From: a virus
Taxonomy: Duplodnaviria; Heunggongvirae; Uroviricota; Caudoviricetes
Virus record (IMG/VR): IMGVR_UViG_2872147552_000001
Strand: one strand, 5' to 3'
Length of the DNA: 64,000 bases
The translations under genes were made by a program, and so were the position numbers. Shown here one piece after another: positions 3,983-35,925 of the stretch (position 1 is the first letter of the stretch; the number at the start of each line of letters is the position of its first letter). Under the pieces are notes generated by a model. That model was not told the origin of the DNA. It worked only from the letters and a program-made list of their open reading frames with translations, and made no database searches.

Positions 3983-4465
3983 TTACACGCCATCAAGGAT
4001 GTGGATGCGGTTGCTTGCGTATACATTCAGCATAAAGTTAGCGCAAAACAGTTTCCATGTATCAACGCCAGCGGTATACGTAATGTTTTTGCATTTAATC
4101 GCATTGTTGGCGATCCGCATCCCCTGCGATACTGCTTCATCGTCGGAAAATTTGAACGACGATTGAGTTTTAATCCAGACAGAAATCTGCGTAGCGAACT
4201 CAATCAGCTTGGACTGGCAGAATCGCCCGGAGCGCACCGGAAAGACGAACGTTCCGAATCCAGAATTTACCACATACGCTTTCTCAAATACCCGCGAGTA
4301 ACGACGATTGCCAATGATGTCGCGTGCAATAATGCATTTTTCTTGTGCTGACAGTTCTACCGTCTCATTGTCGCGCCATGCACCAAGTACTCGTTTTTCA
4401 ATGTCAGAGAACGTTACAGCGATATTGCCATGTGCGGGTGCGTTTACAGTAGCGATAAAATTCAT
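3983..4465 (-). CDS. hypothetical protein (160 aa)
   Basis: ORF with AAGGA RBS; upstream GATAAT -10 and palindromic leader motif. Confidence 0.5.
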   Translation of the reverse strand: MNFIATVNAPAHGNIAVTFSDIEKRVLGAWRDNETVELSAQEKCIIARDIIGNRRYSRVFEKAYVVNSGFGTFVFPVRSGRFCQSKLIEFATQISVWIKTQSSFKFSDDEAVSQGMRIANNAIKCKNITYTAGVDTWKLFCANFMLNVYASNRIHILDGV

Positions 4466-4486
4466 GATTAATTCCTTATCGTAAAT

Positions 4487-4497
4487 AACAAATTGTT
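4487..4497 (-). promoter_or_regulatory. class A palindromic leader motif (AACAAnTTGTT)
   Basis: aacaaattgtt about 22 nt upstream of the start at 4465. Confidence 0.5.
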
Positions 4498-4640
4498 TTC
4501 TTGTTGGTGTTAATTATCGTTGTACGAATAAGGCGTCAAAGTGGAAAGTTGCGGTAGCCGGACGGGAACAGGTGGGTTTGTCGGTTGCCTGGAGGTAAGA
4601 GGTTGGTGTTTTTAGCCTGCGGGAAACAGGATGGTCATTT

Positions 4641-4664
4641 AAGGCCACCAGCATTGGTGGCCTT
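4641..4664 (-). terminator. conserved GGCCACC hairpin at gene 3' end
   Basis: aaggccaccagcattggtggcctt directly after the stop at 4670; one of five related copies. Confidence 0.45.
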
Positions 4665-4669
4665 AATCT

Positions 4670-4951
4670 TTAGTGGAGCAGACCGATGTCGATGGTATCC
4701 CCTGAATCATCCACACGGATCATCAGCATGGCGAAGGCGTTTAGTGGATAACTGGCGTGCCATTCAGGGAAGCGGTCATCTCGCATGAAGTCGGCAATGT
4801 CGTAAACGCATCCCTCAAAGTGGAAGAATCGCGTGCTTACCTGCTCGTCATATTCCACATGATCCATTTCTTGCTGTTCTGTTTCCGGCAAGTCCAGCCA
4901 TGATTCAAGGAATACATTTTGTGCTTTAGGGGTAATGGTGAAATCAGTCAT
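4670..4951 (-). CDS. hypothetical protein (93 aa, acidic)
   Basis: Start moved to the ATG with GAGGA RBS (MTDFTITPK...); ORF track start lies upstream of the promoter motif. Confidence 0.45.
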   Translation of the reverse strand: MTDFTITPKAQNVFLESWLDLPETEQQEMDHVEYDEQVSTRFFHFEGCVYDIADFMRDDRFPEWHASYPLNAFAMLMIRVDDSGDTIDIGLLH

Positions 4952-4970
4952 GAGCATATCCTCACTGCGT

Positions 4971-4984
4971 AAACATGTTGTTTT
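4971..4984 (-). promoter_or_regulatory. class A palindromic leader motif
   Basis: aaacatgttgtttt about 20 nt upstream of the start. Confidence 0.45.
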
Positions 4985-5111
4985 CTTGTTGGTGTAATTA
5001 TCGCAGTGTAGATAAGGCATAAAAGAAGTTAATACAGGCTGAATACACAAGAAAGGTTCTGGAAGTTGATAGCCAGGTTTCAAACTAACCTTCGGTTATT
5101 AAAAGTCATTT

Positions 5112-5135
5112 AAGACCACCAATGCTGGTGGCCTT
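5112..5135 (-). terminator. conserved GGCCACC-type hairpin
   Basis: aagaccaccaatgctggtggcctt. Confidence 0.4.
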
Positions 5136-5140
5136 AATAA

Positions 5141-5284
5141 TTATCGACCGATTACGCTAAGGATCTTTTCCTCAACTGATTTGTTGTTGCGACTAAACTG
5201 CCTTGCGTATCTGATGACAGAAGAGGCGTTTTGCTTTCTGACCATCTCGGCTCTTTCCTTCAGGCGTTTCTTGAAATCGCCCAT
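5141..5284 (-). CDS. possible small basic protein (47 aa), not in ORF track
   Basis: ATG 2 nt after the stop of the upstream gene; MGDFKKRLKERAEMVRKQNASSVIRYARQFSRNNKSVEEKILSVIGR; ends just before the hairpin. Confidence 0.25.
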   Translation of the reverse strand: MGDFKKRLKERAEMVRKQNASSVIRYARQFSRNNKSVEEKILSVIGR

Positions 5285-5286
5285 AT

Positions 5287-5661
5287 TTACCACCAGGCGC
5301 AGAAGGTCAGTCTGTTATTGTGAAAGTCGTGGTTCTTAATCAGATCTTCCACAATCTCTTTCAACTCCCCCACATCATGCCAGTAACCTTCATCGTACTC
5401 CTGACTGCCGAAGAAAAAACCTTCCCGGGTAGGCAAGTACTCTTCGCAATTACTTTCGTTTATGTGCATCAAATGAGCCTTCAGAAAACAAATGTCATTC
5501 ATCGTTAATTCTAAAAGCTCACAATTTTCGACTTCACCTACGTTGCGCTCCATCCACCCAACGAGCGCATTGAACTTACGGAAGTAAGCAACCTGCTTTC
5601 TGGATGCCTCGTTATTCAGATCGTTTTTAGGCTGTGTCTCGATATAGATATCAAGTCCCAT
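5287..5661 (-). CDS. hypothetical protein
   Basis: Start set at ATG with AAGGAAA RBS (MGLDIYIETQ...). Confidence 0.45.
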   Translation of the reverse strand: MGLDIYIETQPKNDLNNEASRKQVAYFRKFNALVGWMERNVGEVENCELLELTMNDICFLKAHLMHINESNCEEYLPTREGFFFGSQEYDEGYWHDVGELKEIVEDLIKNHDFHNNRLTFCAWW

Positions 5662-9429: not shown

Positions 9430-9729
9430 TTACCAGTTCCAGCACTCAAGCCCTTCAACGACCGGTGCACCACAATCAAAATGTACAGAGTCAAAGCCTA
9501 CATCAAGTACTTTCTGAATGTTAGCAATCGCGCCTTCGGATATACCATATCGACGCAAGTCCTCTTTCCAGACATCATCCTGTAACCCGGCGTGGACAAT
9601 ACAACCGCCGTCAATTTGCGAAACCCAATCCAGCTCATTGCTTGCGATCATGAATCGGCGAGCATCTTCCTCTGATGTATGAGATGAACTGATCAATGCC
9701 ACCTGGTAGGCTTGGGTAATGTTCAACAT
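9430..9729 (-). CDS. hypothetical protein (99 aa)
   Basis: ATG with GGAG RBS; class A motif in leader. Confidence 0.45.
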   Translation of the reverse strand: MLNITQAYQVALISSSHTSEEDARRFMIASNELDWVSQIDGGCIVHAGLQDDVWKEDLRRYGISEGAIANIQKVLDVGFDSVHFDCGAPVVEGLECWNW

Positions 9730-9741
9730 TTCAACCACTCC

Positions 9742-9756
9742 GAAACAATTTGTTTT
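9742..9756 (-). promoter_or_regulatory. class A palindromic leader motif
   Basis: gaaacaatttgtttt. Confidence 0.45.
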
Positions 9757-9790
9757 CTTATGTGGTTTATTATCTCCATCAACAAAAGGC

Positions 9791-9807
9791 AGAAAACAAA
9801 TTGTTTT
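9791..9807 (-). promoter_or_regulatory. class A palindromic motif, second copy
   Basis: agaaaacaaattgtttt 35 nt further upstream. Confidence 0.4.
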
Positions 9808-9844
9808 AGGTACTGTGTAAATCAGAAGGGATTGTGTCTATATG

Positions 9845-9871
9845 AAAATGCCCGGCGTGTTGCCGGGCATT
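9845..9871 (-). terminator. rho-independent terminator of metG
   Basis: Minus-strand hairpin gcccggcaacacgccgggc followed by UUUUCAU, 20 nt after the metG stop. Confidence 0.7.
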
Positions 9872-9890
9872 GCGAAGAGAGGTTGTTTAA

Positions 9891-11924
9891 TTACTTAACC
9901 TGGTGGCCAGGTTTAGCACCAGCATCCGGGCTTAACAGGAAGATATCTTTCCCGCCGGGGCCAGCAGCCATCACCATGCCTTCAGAGATACCGAAGCGCA
10001 TTTTACGTGGTGCCAGGTTAGCCACCATAATGGTGTGACGACCAATCAGTGCCTGTGGATCTGGATAAGCGGAACGGATGCCTGAGAAGACATTACGCTT
10101 TTCACCACCGAGATCCAGCGTCAGGCGAAGCAGTTTGTCAGAACCTTCTACAAACTCTGCGTTTTCAATCAGCGCCACGCGCAGGTCAACTTTGGCGAAG
10201 TCGTCAAAGGTGATAGTTTCCTGAATCGGGTCGTCAGCCAGTGGGCCAGTTACCGGTGCGGCTGTGGCTTTCACTTCTTCTTTGGATGCTTCCACCAGTG
10301 CTTCAACCTGCTTCATATCGATGCGGTTATACAGTGCCTTGAACGGATTTACTTTATGGCCCAGCAGCGGTTGCTGGATACCATCCCAGGTCAGTTCTGT
10401 ATTCAGGAATGCTTCTGCACGTTCAGTCAGTTTCGGCAGTACCGGCTTCAGGTACGTCATCAGCACGCGGAACAGGTTAATGCCCATAGAGCAAATCGCC
10501 TGCAGATCGGCATCGCGACCTTCCTGCTTCGCCACCACCCACGGAGCCTGTTCATCGACATAGCGGTTAGCCAGGTCAGCCAATGCCATGATTTCACGGA
10601 TAGCTTTACCAAATTCGCGGCTTTCCCATGCTTCGCCAATCACTTCAGCGGCATCAGTAAAGGTTTTGTACAGTTGCGGGTCAGCCAGTTCGCTTGCCAG
10701 CACGCCGTCAAAACGCTTGTTTATAAAGCCTGCATTACGGGAGGCCAGGTTAACCACTTTGTTCACGATATCGGCATTCACGCGCTGAACGAAATCCTCC
10801 AGGTTGAGATCGATATCATCAATGCGCGAAGAGAGTTTCGCAGTGTAGTAGTAACGCAGGCTGTCGGCGTCAAAATGATTCAGCCAGGTGCTGGCTTTAA
10901 TAAAGGTGCCGCGAGACTTGGACATCTTCGCGCCGTTCACCGTCACATAGCCGTGAACAAACAGGTTGGTCGGCTTGCGGAAGTTGCTGCCTTCCAGCAT
11001 GGCAGGCCAGAACAGGCTGTGGAAGTAAACAATATCTTTACCGATGAAGTGGTACAGCTCGGCGGTGGAGTCTTTCTTCCAGTATTCATCGAAGCTGGTG
11101 GTATCGCCGCGCTTGTCGCACAGATTCTTGAAGGAACCCATGTAGCCAATCGGCGCGTCCAGCCAGACGTAGAAATATTTGCCCGGCGCGTCCGGAATTT
11201 CAAAACCGAAGTAAGGCGCATCGCGGGAGATATCCCACTGTTGCAGGCCGGATTCAAACCATTCCTGCATTTTGTTCGCCACCTGCTCCTGCAACGCGCC
11301 GCTGCGGGTCCATGCCTGCAACATTTCGCTGAAAGAAGGCAGATCAAAGAAGAAGTGTTCGGAATCACGCATTACCGGGGTAGCGCCAGAAACCACCGAT
11401 TTCGGCTCGATCAATTCAGTCGGGCTATATGTTGCGCCGCAGACTTCACAGTTATCGCCGTATTGATCTGGCGCTTTACATTTCGGGCAGGTGCCTTTTA
11501 CAAAACGATCCGGCAGGAACATGCCTTTTTCCGGGTCGTACAACTGAGAGATAGTGCGGTTTTTAATAAAACCGTTCTCTTTCAGGCGAGTATAGATAAG
11601 CTCAGACAACTGACGGTTCTCTTCGCTGTGCGTCGAGTGATAGTTGTCATAGCTGATGTTAAAGCCTGCGAAATCAGTCTGGTGTTCCTGACTCATTTCG
11701 CCAATCATCTGCTCCGGTGTGATACCAAGCTGCTGCGCTTTCAGCATGATCGGCGTACCGTGGGCATCGTCGGCACAGATGAAATTAACCTCGTGGCCGC
11801 GCATTCGCTGGTAACGAACCCAGACATCAGCCTGGATGTGCTCCAGCATATGGCCGAGGTGGATTGAGCCGTTAGCGTACGGCAGCGCGCACGTCACCAG
11901 AATTTTCTTCGCGACTTGGGTCAT
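9891..11924 (-). CDS. metG: methionyl-tRNA synthetase
   Basis: 677 aa from [26 protein letters not shown] (HIGH motif) with KMSKS and C-terminal tRNA-binding domain; very close to enterobacterial MetG from memory. Confidence 0.9.
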
Positions 11925-12081
11925 AGTAGGCATTACTTCTTTGTAGTGAAAAGGGGCTTGATAGTAACAAAATGGCCTTATGTCTGCCATGTGATAACAG
12001 CATTTCTCATAAATGATTAAATGTCGTAGCTGGAGTACACTACAAGGCGACAATTGCGCAAATTAAAATAAAGGAGACGGG

Positions 12082-13182
12082 ATGAGCGAGTCCAAATCGC
12101 CGGATGCCCTGAGAGCAATGGTAGCCGGTACGCTGGCTAATTTTCAGCACCCAACCCTGAAACACAACCTGACTACGCTTAAAGCGTTACACCATGTTGC
12201 GTTGATGGATGACACACTGCATGTCGAACTAATCATGCCTTTCGTGTGGAATAAGCCTTTTGAAGACCTGAAAGAGCAATGTAGTGGTGATCTGCTCCGT
12301 ATCACTGGCGCAAAGGCTATTGACTGGAAGCTGTCGTACAACATTGCCACGCTTAAGCGCGTCAAAAACCAACCAGGCATTAATGGCGTTAAGAACATTA
12401 TCGCCGTCAGCTCAGGCAAGGGCGGCGTGGGTAAATCCTCCACGGCGGTAAACCTGGCACTGGCGTTGGCTGCTGAAGGTGCGAAAGTTGGTATTTTGGA
12501 TGCCGATATCTATGGTCCATCAATTCCAACCATGCTGGGTGCGGAAAACCAACGTCCAACCTCACCTGACGGTACTCACATGGCACCTATCATGTCTCAT
12601 GGCCTGGCAACCAACTCTATTGGTTATCTGGTCACCGACGACAATGCAATGGTGTGGCGTGGACCGATGGCCAGCAAGGCGCTGATGCAGATGTTGCAGG
12701 AAACTCTATGGCCTGATCTGGACTATCTCGTTCTCGATATGCCGCCGGGCACTGGTGATATTCAGTTGACGCTGGCGCAGAACATTCCTGTAACTGGTGC
12801 GGTTGTGGTAACTACGCCGCAAGACATCGCGCTGATCGATGCGAAGAAAGGCATTGTGATGTTCGAAAAAGTCGAAGTGCCGGTACTGGGTATCGTCGAA
12901 AACATGAGTGTGCATATTTGCAGTAACTGCGGTCATCACGAGCCAATTTTTGGCACCGGTGGCGCACAGAAACTGGCCGAGAAATACAACACGCAGTTGT
13001 TAGGCCAAATGCCACTTCATATCTCTCTTCGTGAAGATCTGGATAACGGAACACCAACCGTTATTAGTCGTCCAGATAGCGAATTTACGGCTATTTATCG
13101 TGACCTCGCAGATCGCGTTGCCGCCCAAATGTATTGGCAAGGTGAAGTAATACCTGGCGAAATCGCATTCCGCGCAGTGTGA
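12082..13182 (+). CDS. apbC: Fe-S cluster carrier ATPase ApbC/Mrp
   Basis: P-loop SSGKGGVGKS, CxxC (CSNCGHH); divergent from metG as in enterobacterial chromosomes. Confidence 0.9.
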   Translation: MSESKSPDALRAMVAGTLANFQHPTLKHNLTTLKALHHVALMDDTLHVELIMPFVWNKPFEDLKEQCSGDLLRITGAKAIDWKLSYNIATLKRVKNQPGINGVKNIIAVSSGKGGVGKSSTAVNLALALAAEGAKVGILDADIYGPSIPTMLGAENQRPTSPDGTHMAPIMSHGLATNSIGYLVTDDNAMVWRGPMASKALMQMLQETLWPDLDYLVLDMPPGTGDIQLTLAQNIPVTGAVVVTTPQDIALIDAKKGIVMFEKVEVPVLGIVENMSVHICSNCGHHEPIFGTGGAQKLAEKYNTQLLGQMPLHISLREDLDNGTPTVISRPDSEFTAIYRDLADRVAAQMYWQGEVIPGEIAFRAV

Positions 13183-13183
13183 T

Positions 13184-13210
13184 AAAAAGGCGGTGCATTG
13201 CACCGCCTAA
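13184..13210. terminator. bidirectional terminator between apbC and umuD'-like gene
   Basis: aaaaaggcggtgcattgcaccgcc hairpin; T-run on minus strand. Confidence 0.6.
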
Positions 13211-13219
13211 TCAGTTCTC

Positions 13220-13609
13220 CTACATCACGGGACAATCATCAAACTCGCCACTTCTTGCGTCGTTGATAATGTGAGTGATCACACCAAACACGGCATTGCT
13301 GCCCGTGCATCCATCGTCATCCTTTGGCAATGCTTCCTTCTTACCGGTTCTTAAATCCTCCAGATGCTGACGTGGGTACTTCCGGTATCTTTTTACGCGA
13401 TATTCCCCATCCAGAGCGCATACAAGCAGAGAACCATCAACCGGGGTAAGCGAGGAATCGACCACCAGCAATGCACCCTGTAATATTCCCTCACGATGAT
13501 GACTATCAGCTGCCCTCATGAAGTAGGTCGCTGAAGGATGTCTAATTATCTGCTGATCAAGAGAAATACGGCTCTCAGCATAATCCGCCGCAGGAGAAGG
13601 GAAGCCCAT
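13220..13609 (-). CDS. umuD: UmuD'-like protein (pre-truncated, HumD-like)
   Basis: 129 aa beginning M-GFPSPAADY, the residue after the UmuD self-cleavage site; retains S24 peptidase fold motifs (HPSATYF, Ser and Lys positions). Confidence 0.7.
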   Translation of the reverse strand: MGFPSPAADYAESRISLDQQIIRHPSATYFMRAADSHHREGILQGALLVVDSSLTPVDGSLLVCALDGEYRVKRYRKYPRQHLEDLRTGKKEALPKDDDGCTGSNAVFGVITHIINDARSGEFDDCPVM

Positions 13610-13625
13610 AGCGTTTTGCCCTCAA

Positions 13626-13645
13626 TACTGTTCATTTATACAGTA
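13626..13645. promoter_or_regulatory. LexA (SOS) box
   Basis: TACTGTtcatttatACAGTA = CTGT-N8-ACAG, 17-36 nt upstream of the umuD'-like start. Confidence 0.7.
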
Positions 13646-13728
13646 TACATGAAAGAAGCTCACTCAGTGCAACTGATCGGTACATAGCACCAGACAAAGG
13701 AACGTTATTTTCTCGAACAAGAAAAGGT

Positions 13729-13743
13729 AGAAAACAAATTGTT
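13729..13743 (-). promoter_or_regulatory. class A palindromic motif
   Basis: gaaaacaaattgttt; part of the 50-bp unit repeated at 18003-18038. Confidence 0.45.
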
Positions 13744-13744
13744 T

Positions 13745-13765
13745 AAGGCCACAACTAGTGGCCTT
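13745..13765 (-). terminator. conserved GGCCAC hairpin
   Basis: aaggccacaactagtggcctt right after the gene ending at 13782. Confidence 0.45.
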
Positions 13766-35879: not shown

Positions 35880-35925
35880 GTATCACCAAATAAAGAGGGC
35901 CACTATATTTAGTGGCCCATGTTAA

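Follow-up and report, generated by a model that had tools for sequence, protein, structure and literature searches.

A metG-apbC accessory module in the variable cargo slot of an SSU5-type phage-plasmid

An SSU5-group phage-plasmid is present in 18% of UK Shigella sonnei genomes, and the pWPMR2-like elements (SSU5 clade K) also occur in Escherichia coli clonal complexes CC131, CC23 and CC73 (bioRxiv 10.1101/2025.09.12.675607). According to the summary of Tam et al. (2024) given in PMC12452169, multiple, highly variable phage-plasmid copies of metG, the gene for methionyl-tRNA synthetase (MetRS), are associated with multidrug-resistant S. sonnei, and their expression produces a subpopulation predisposed to third-generation cephalosporin resistance. 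Experimental data are also available for Cyrano, that is pLF82 of the adherent-invasive E. coli strain LF82 (OV696614 / NC_011917), a plasmid prophage which is present at 5.5 copies per cell, was shown by quantitative PCR and electron microscopy to produce siphovirus virions, and is ciprofloxacin-inducible (PMC9928086). In the present study, we examined a metG-apbC pair within a 64,000-nucleotide stretch of viral DNA (IMG/VR record IMGVR_UViG_2872147552_000001; hereafter, the window), a 98%-identical relative of Cyrano.

The described counterparts are close to the window. Phage-plasmids of the pWPMR2/p1538007_2 type in S. sonnei carry the pair in the same slot, with the same neighbours (a DUF5983 gene and humD) and the same terminator, in a block 97.6% identical to that of the window; their metG allele is set apart by further nonsynonymous changes (G134C, A410T, A556V, D565E and others) and by 344 nt identical to metG of E. 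coli K-12, neither of which is found in the window allele. Cyrano encodes MetRS and ApbC proteins identical to those of the window, in a block that is 98.8% identical and with 21 synonymous and no nonsynonymous differences in each gene; its ApbC is annotated as 'septum site-determining protein MinD'. The module is already known, being annotated by NCBI's Prokaryotic Genome Annotation Pipeline in hundreds of records, and phage-plasmid metG has been studied before (cited in PMC12452169), so that a preliminary description of this DNA overstated the case when it called such cargo unusual.

We read 9807-13219 as an established metG-apbC accessory module of this lineage of Escherichia and Shigella phage-plasmids, a chromosomal segment which was captured anciently, has been kept by selection and most likely affects the host through persistence, and we put the probability of this reading at roughly 0.85. 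The comparisons made here show the identity, intactness, position, distribution and age of the module and the purifying selection acting upon it; copy number and virion production are taken from the literature on Cyrano, and transcription in lysogens and the persistence phenotype likewise come from published work.

The module, its slot and its recurrence

Over the 24 kb of backbone compared (30000-54000), the window is 98.4% identical to Cyrano at 100% coverage and 79.0% identical to SSU5 at 84% coverage, and PHROG matches identify SSU5-type DNA-metabolism genes in it (ribonucleotide reductase, SbcCD, a helicase, a DNA polymerase and CobS/CobT-like proteins). By backbone homology and gene content, the element is an SSU5-supergroup phage-plasmid of the pLF82/Cyrano (pWPMR2-like) type. 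A P1-like (Punavirus) identity had first been assumed from a match in humD and was ruled out by the SSU5/Cyrano-type backbone; P1, P7, D6 and SJ46 match the query in humD alone (10% of the query, at 86-88% identity), and downstream of humD they have phd-doc or other genes.

The metG gene lies on the minus strand (9891-11924) and encodes an intact methionine--tRNA ligase of 677 amino acids, whose residues 4-677 match NCBIfam NF001100 over profile positions 3-676 of 676 with 1020.9 bits (cut-off 587). Pfam matches to tRNA-synt_1g, Anticodon_3 and tRNA_bind were found, the last being the C-terminal PF01588 at residues 581-674, and both class I signatures (HLGH22 and KMSKS333) and both zinc knuckles (CPKC146 and CEVC159) are present. 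Compared with K-12, the protein has nine conservative substitutions, none of them in the HIGH, KMSKS or zinc-knuckle motifs, and a comparison of 10 plasmid alleles with 8 alleles from Escherichia chromosomes found no fixed MetRS difference between the two groups. Judged by these features, the window MetRS is the same type-1 enzyme as that of the host and no divergent type-2 MetRS. The start codon was taken to be the ATG at 11924, in agreement with K-12 and all annotations, and not a TTG that would give a 720-amino-acid version, and a 503-amino-acid antisense open reading frame (ORF) within metG (10356-11867, plus strand) was treated as spurious.

On the plus strand, apbC (mrp; 12082-13182) encodes an intact iron-sulfur cluster carrier P-loop NTPase of 366 amino acids, which matches NF008669 with 759.3 bits (cut-off 348) and retains both the deviant Walker A motif (GKGGVGKS112) and the CxxC ligands (CSNC280). 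In this protein, 17 amino-acid differences from Escherichia ApbC are fixed, in addition to a 3-codon N-terminal deletion. The two genes diverge across a 157-bp intergenic region (11925-12081) that came in with them and is the presumed site of their promoters, the same arrangement as mrp/metG of K-12, which bears out the earlier claim of a full-length, enterobacterial-type divergent pair. Homology to the K-12 chromosome is confined to 9890-13178, with the stop codons of the two genes as its limits. Thus, the window and the chromosomal mrp(apbC)-metG locus share the genes, their divergence, the MetRS length of 677 amino acids and the conserved motifs, whereas they differ by 6% (metG) and 17-18% (apbC) of nucleotides, in their terminators and in all neighbouring genes.

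The limits of the insertion are given by two sister plasmids without the pair, pTB212 (NZ_CP033252.1) and pLAO4 (NZ_OP242218.1). Because backbone homology to both ends at 9806, and that to pTB212 restarts at 13220, the humD stop codon, the pair occupies a variable cargo slot of 3413 bp (9807-13219). In the same slot, pTB212 has a 933-bp DUF4145 gene (4378-5310 of the fetched locus) and pLAO4 has other small genes and insertion sequence elements (5378 onward in the fetched locus), and this alternative cargo implies that the site beside the DUF5983 gene is a cargo hotspot of the lineage. A search with a synthetic deletion-junction query did not find an exact empty site and found the alternative cargo of pTB212 and pLAO4 instead. 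With backbone genes (DUF5983 and humD) and element motifs on both sides, the pair lies within the mobile element, as had been proposed.

The same arrangement recurs widely. Positions 9500-13700 align in one piece, at 96-99% identity, to four phage records (Cyrano and CMS-2020a among them) and to 185 PLSDB plasmids, while at least 80% of the slot segment is present, at 96-99.8% identity, in 201 PLSDB plasmids, most of which are ~105-115 kb and non-mobilizable. Of 5426 complete E. coli genomes, 214 (~4%) contain the block, the records listed being plasmids of ~100-114 kb, and ~30 IMG/VR viral contigs carry it with the same neighbours; the junctions were confirmed in nine fetched copies. Since the chromosomal metG is kept in essentially all genomes, the plasmid metG-apbC is a second copy, and the identity classes of plasmid and chromosomal copies do not overlap. 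As a natural disruption, NZ_CP075739.1 (86598-91309) has a transposase gene annotated within its metG-apbC match, which aligns in two pieces.

This recurrence bears directly on an assembly chimera, in which chromosomal metG-apbC reads would have been mis-joined into a phage-plasmid contig, an alternative raised by the preliminary description. The comparison with the flanking genes which that description suggested does find a higher GC content in the block (50-52%, against 42-48% in the flanks), and some draft IMG/VR contigs oddly mix chromosomal-type and plasmid-type copies, both of which could be taken to point to mis-joining. However, both junctions lie within one alignment piece in ~200 independently assembled complete circular plasmids and phage records, the block with its junctions being present in more than 200 such independent records overall, and, because it is 6% (metG) and 17% (apbC) removed from every E. 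coli chromosome, the block was not built from host chromosomal reads. We give a chimera next to no probability.

Several other database matches were rejected as mobile copies. A 232-kb Klebsiella 'plasmid' (OW969824.1) has chromosomal neighbours (yehU, yehT, yehW-Y), and four Salmonella 'plasmids' of 300-500 kb (CP075030.1, NZ_CP148876.1, CP148755.1 and CP148763.1) and an unverified 5-kb contig named 'Salmonella phage S.Kent 1-2-1' (OR850913.1) match, like the Klebsiella record, in the two genes alone, with chromosome-like identity; all of these have the appearance of pieces of chromosome deposited under a plasmid or phage label.

Age, selection and mosaic history

In complete E. coli genomes, all 5424 copies of metG on chromosomes share 92.9-94.2% identity with that of the window, and those on plasmids share at least 95%. 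The corresponding values for apbC are 82-83% on E. coli chromosomes (maximum 83.1% among the matches listed) and again at least 95% on plasmids. The best chromosomal identities overall were 94.3% for metG and 83-84% for apbC. In a search for a donor chromosome, one genome per GTDB species was scanned with ApbC and 80 loci were compared, but no donor was found, and no chromosome among these 80 Enterobacteriaceae species representatives was closer (best ApbC match, 95% of amino acids). Escherichia, Citrobacter and Salmonella tie as the nearest for apbC, with 94-95% amino-acid and 80-84% nucleotide identity.

Synonymous divergence (dS) and the ratio of nonsynonymous to synonymous divergence (dN/dS) are given as Nei-Gojobori estimates, dN/dS being 0.01-0.03 over both genes. 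For metG, which has 93-94% nucleotide identity to Escherichia chromosomes, dS to every Escherichia species is 0.29-0.37, the same as between Escherichia species, with dN/dS of 0.01-0.02; for apbC, with 82-84% nucleotide identity to Escherichia and to Citrobacter, dS to these genera is 1.2-1.6, compared with 0.4-0.6 within Escherichia, with dN/dS of ~0.02. One record labelled Enterobacter hormaechei B56 (CP170191.1) has metG and apbC identities and dN/dS to the window that are exactly those of K-12 and is probably a mislabelled E. coli.

The metG gene is followed, on the minus strand, by a terminator-like hairpin (9847-9871) with a 10-bp stem (dG -19.1, z -5.9) and a UUUUCAU tail. This hairpin is present, with compensatory changes, in all plasmid copies, including the one from Salmonella, and absent from the chromosomal loci compared; it is, as far as these loci indicate, specific to the phage-plasmids and distinct from the chromosomal metG terminator. 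A second hairpin, between the apbC and humD stop codons (13188-13208), has a dG of -18.6 on the minus strand, with UUUUUAUC, and no U-run on the plus strand. Because its U-tail is on the minus strand only, it reads as the terminator of humD and not of apbC.

The other alternative of the preliminary description was a recent capture, in which this element would have taken metG-apbC from its own host; the chromosomal gene order and orientation and the exactness of the gene boundaries would speak for it. Such an event is very improbable given the distances involved. Measured against the nearest chromosomes, metG has a dS of 0.29 and apbC one of at least 1.2, and neither E. coli chromosomes (among those listed, at most 94.2% for metG and 83.1% for apbC) nor the 80 species representatives come any closer. 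In addition, the plasmid metG alleles have diversified among themselves, differing by up to 6.6%, and the phage-plasmid-specific metG terminator is common to a Salmonella phage-plasmid.

The plasmid copies are themselves under purifying selection. Besides the exclusively synonymous differences between the window and Cyrano, the 10 plasmid alleles differ among themselves by at most 134 synonymous and 14 nonsynonymous changes in metG, and by at most 44 and 3, respectively, in apbC. One and the same ApbC protein (WP_000004356.1) is the annotated product on plasmids whose apbC genes are up to ~4% apart in nucleotide sequence. This pattern speaks for MetRS acting through dosage or regulation and for the ApbC paralogue having a conserved role of its own.

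Second copies of aminoacyl-tRNA synthetases on mobile elements are classically resistance determinants, and MupA/IleRS2 and the synthetases of giant viruses are mobile- or virus-borne enzymes that are highly divergent from the host enzyme. Unlike these, the window MetRS is ~99% protein-identical to that of the host. An inhibitor-resistant auxiliary synthetase, protecting against a MetRS-targeting antibiotic or toxin in the way that IleRS2 does against mupirocin, would have precedents in MupA and MupB, for which NCBIfam holds models (NF000257 and NF000258), but the catalytic motifs of the window MetRS are unchanged and not one position is fixed differently between the plasmid and Escherichia alleles. 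A MetRS without fixed differences beside an ApbC with 17 argues against a MupA-like enzyme, and we regard this explanation as highly unlikely.

The two halves of the block have different histories. Identity to K-12, measured per 100 nt, is 88-100% over the greater part of metG and for 47 nt into its upstream region, falls sharply in the spacer near 11972 and is then 75-92% through apbC. In the spacer, those first 47 nt are ~90% identical to Escherichia, and the remainder is non-Escherichia-like and closer in layout to spacers of the Citrobacter/Salmonella type; the whole spacer is 100% identical in pYLMB30c and Cyrano. By this identity profile, the block is composed of two halves of different age. 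Long tracts with 99-100% identity to K-12 are found in some plasmid metG alleles. Runs identical to K-12 metG reach 344 nt in the S. sonnei p1538007_2 allele and 237 nt in pECOH89 and pEc2-51408, while the longest in the window is 126 nt, within the 98-134 nt seen between Escherichia species.

A Salmonella SSU5-like element (CP053410.1) bears on how these halves arose. Its backbone is syntenic with that of the window at 66-80% identity, and its slot, too, is occupied by metG-apbC. The left junction is conserved and comprises both palindromes and the metG hairpin with its compensatory changes. Its gene bodies and right junction are unlike those of the window: the block is 96.7% identical to the chromosome of S. 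enterica subsp. diarizonae and 83% to the window, and at the right junction ~25 nt of Salmonella 3' flank is retained and humD is missing. With this one Salmonella record as its basis, the comparison suggests that the pair was captured once, long ago, and that host chromosomes have since converted it repeatedly.

More specifically, one capture could have taken place in the ancestor of the Escherichia- and Salmonella-associated elements, with later conversion by resident chromosomes from which apbC escaped, a scenario that we hold tentatively and at somewhat less than even odds. In the Escherichia lineage, the metG half would have been overwritten to the Escherichia type and would still be patched by E. 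coli-identical tracts, whereas apbC, the better-expressed gene, would evolve as a separate paralogue under very strong purifying selection. A single capture is argued for by the left junction and the phage-plasmid-specific terminator with compensatory changes, which are common to both lineages; alternatively, Escherichia- and Salmonella-type elements may have captured the segment independently into the same slot.

Two IMG/VR contigs (IMGVR_UViG_2671181056_000013 and IMGVR_UViG_2740892421_000017) contain two to three tandem units with a chromosomal-type apbC (82.8% identical to the window) and a plasmid-type one (98.5%), together with truncated metG copies. These units, which recall the 'multiple, highly variable copies of metG' of the literature, may reflect real amplification or cointegration or may be artefacts of draft assembly.

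Possible roles in the lysogen and in the lytic cycle

The functional part of our reading would run as follows. A chromosomal segment of precisely two divergent genes and their shared intergenic promoter region would have entered the slot long ago, and every lysogen would gain a second, essentially wild-type MetRS and a phage-plasmid-specific ApbC paralogue at plasmid dosage. Both genes appear to use their own promoters and terminators. Through its dosage, the extra or variant MetRS could perturb the balance of Met-tRNA charging and proofreading in a subpopulation, and the most likely consequence for the host, following published work as cited, would be a longer lag and thereby antibiotic-tolerant persisters; the module would also supply a dedicated ApbC, whose own role we can only infer. 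Mutation or knock-down of metG raises persistence by lowering translation and changing the proofreading of homocysteine (PMC11004401), and homocysteine thiolactone formed by MetRS proofreading shortens lag through SdiA (PMC13463772). Persistence is the documented host phenotype as far as the summary in PMC12452169 conveys it, and the steps from gene to phenotype are partly taken from the literature and partly our own proposal.

Several points weigh against this reading. First, the persistence mechanism depends on the secondary summary in PMC12452169, which, in what it relates of the original study, stresses variant S. sonnei alleles; the window has the pLF82 allele, for which the phenotype may be weaker or absent, and its MetRS departs from that of K-12 only by the nine conservative substitutions and from the chromosomal MetRS of Escherichia by none that is fixed. 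Second, published persistence data mostly concern reduced MetRS function and not extra wild-type copies (PMC11004401). Third, RNA-seq of LF82 in LB found plasmid metG to be weakly transcribed (~16 normalised counts), whereas plasmid apbC, described there as a 'moron', was found in LF82 RNA-seq at 92 normalised counts, 9-fold above local background (PMC9928086); with metG weakly transcribed and apbC clearly expressed, MetRS dosage may not be the main selected trait. Finally, a consensus promoter scan gave no match in the intergenic region, and promoter and terminator numbers were no higher than in shuffled sequence; since the scan was not above chance, the use of the genes' own promoters is something we infer.

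A role in the lytic cycle is a minority alternative that we consider unlikely. In this case, the second MetRS would keep translation initiation and elongation going through the burst, and ApbC would feed iron-sulfur clusters to enzymes encoded or demanded by the phage, in the manner of auxiliary metabolic genes and of the element's own tRNA and nucleotide-metabolism genes. Consistent with it are the large DNA and nucleotide module (ribonucleotide reductase, DNA polymerase, SbcCD, CobS/CobT-like) and four tRNA genes on the element, the very strong conservation of ApbC as a distinct phage-plasmid paralogue, and the position of the block among early-type small genes bearing the element's palindrome. 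The tRNA genes, however, which the preliminary description had placed next to the synthetase, lie ~50 kb from metG-apbC, in a minus-strand cluster at 62943-63596 (Ser(TGA), Thr(TGT), Tyr(GTA) and Asn(GTT)), and no tRNA-Met is among these four despite the presence of a MetRS gene. The block, moreover, has retained its own chromosomal-type intergenic region instead of phage signals, apbC is expressed in the uninduced lysogen, many relatives (SSU5, pTB212, pLAO4) lack the module, and the experimental work, as cited in PMC12452169, assigns a phenotype to the lysogen.

Surroundings of the slot and significance of the module

To the left of the slot lies the DUF5983 backbone gene (9430-9738, minus strand; Pfam PF19419, E 7.8e-11), which is 90-91% identical to its counterparts in pTB212 and pLAO4. 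To the right is humD (13220-13609, minus strand; UmuD'-like; NF051876, 220 bits), with a LexA-box-like CTGT-N8-ACAG read from the sequence 18 nt upstream of it (13628-13643); in the P1 and P7 records, the region matching humD has an annotated LexA feature. Data from LF82 show the humD homologue of Cyrano rising from a log2 value of ~7 in LB to ~12 inside macrophages, a rise that, together with the LexA-like box, fits SOS control. In a plasmid of E. marmotae (NZ_CP072690.1), the gene to the right of apbC is annotated not as humD but as der (ribosome-biogenesis GTPase Der; 4516-4856 of the fetched locus), a further host-type, translation-related gene on a phage-plasmid of this lineage.

The element's palindrome, GAAAACAAATTGTTT, occurs in exact form at 9743-9757 (minus strand), 5 nt upstream of the DUF5983 start codon, and at 9792-9806 (plus strand), as the final backbone bases before the cargo. 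On the right flank, a third exact copy at 13730-13744 is followed by a GGCCAC hairpin at 13747-13763 (together 13730-13763, plus strand; hairpin dG -16.2, z -4.9). At up to two mismatches, the window contains 21 copies where 0.45 are expected (~45-fold enrichment), spanning 4484-59903, with sites at, for example, 4484, 5719, 6622, 7109, 8301, 9743 and 9792 and further on at 13730, 18003, 22545, 23272, 33489, 45217 and 59889. When positions are compared with the ORF list, the copies usually lie ~5-55 nt upstream of minus-strand ORF starts in regions of small genes, and the palindrome is conserved in the Salmonella relative CP053410.1. Such closeness to the ribosome-binding site gives it the look of a phage-plasmid operator or 5'-untranslated-region element. 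GGCCAC...GTGGCC hairpins number three in the window (0.06 expected), at 4643-4662, 13747-13763 and 35898-35917, and are probably element-specific terminators or protein-binding sites; a motif scan of the window found none adjoining the left junction. Of the motifs said to flank the pair on both sides, the palindromes do so (9743, 9792 and 13730), while the GGCCAC hairpin is found on the right flank only.

In summary, the best account of the module appears to be that of a selected accessory cassette. A temperate, multicopy phage-plasmid bears a second copy of an essential translation gene in ~4% of complete E. coli genomes, and this prevalence, together with the published link of the carried metG to tolerance and persistence and later resistance evolution, makes the module medically relevant. 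If the history of a single capture and later conversion is true, chromosome-plasmid conversion, possibly with cointegration at metG, would be the source of the 'multiple, highly variable' alleles of metG that have been tied to persistence, alleles could pass back from the phage-plasmid into an essential chromosomal gene, and ApbC, neglected so far, may be the primary selected cargo. The two halves of different age, the conversion tracts and the conserved ApbC paralogue are modest extensions of what is known and not a new kind of system. The case illustrates that host-like DNA within a phage-plasmid can be accessory cargo of long standing that is maintained by selection.

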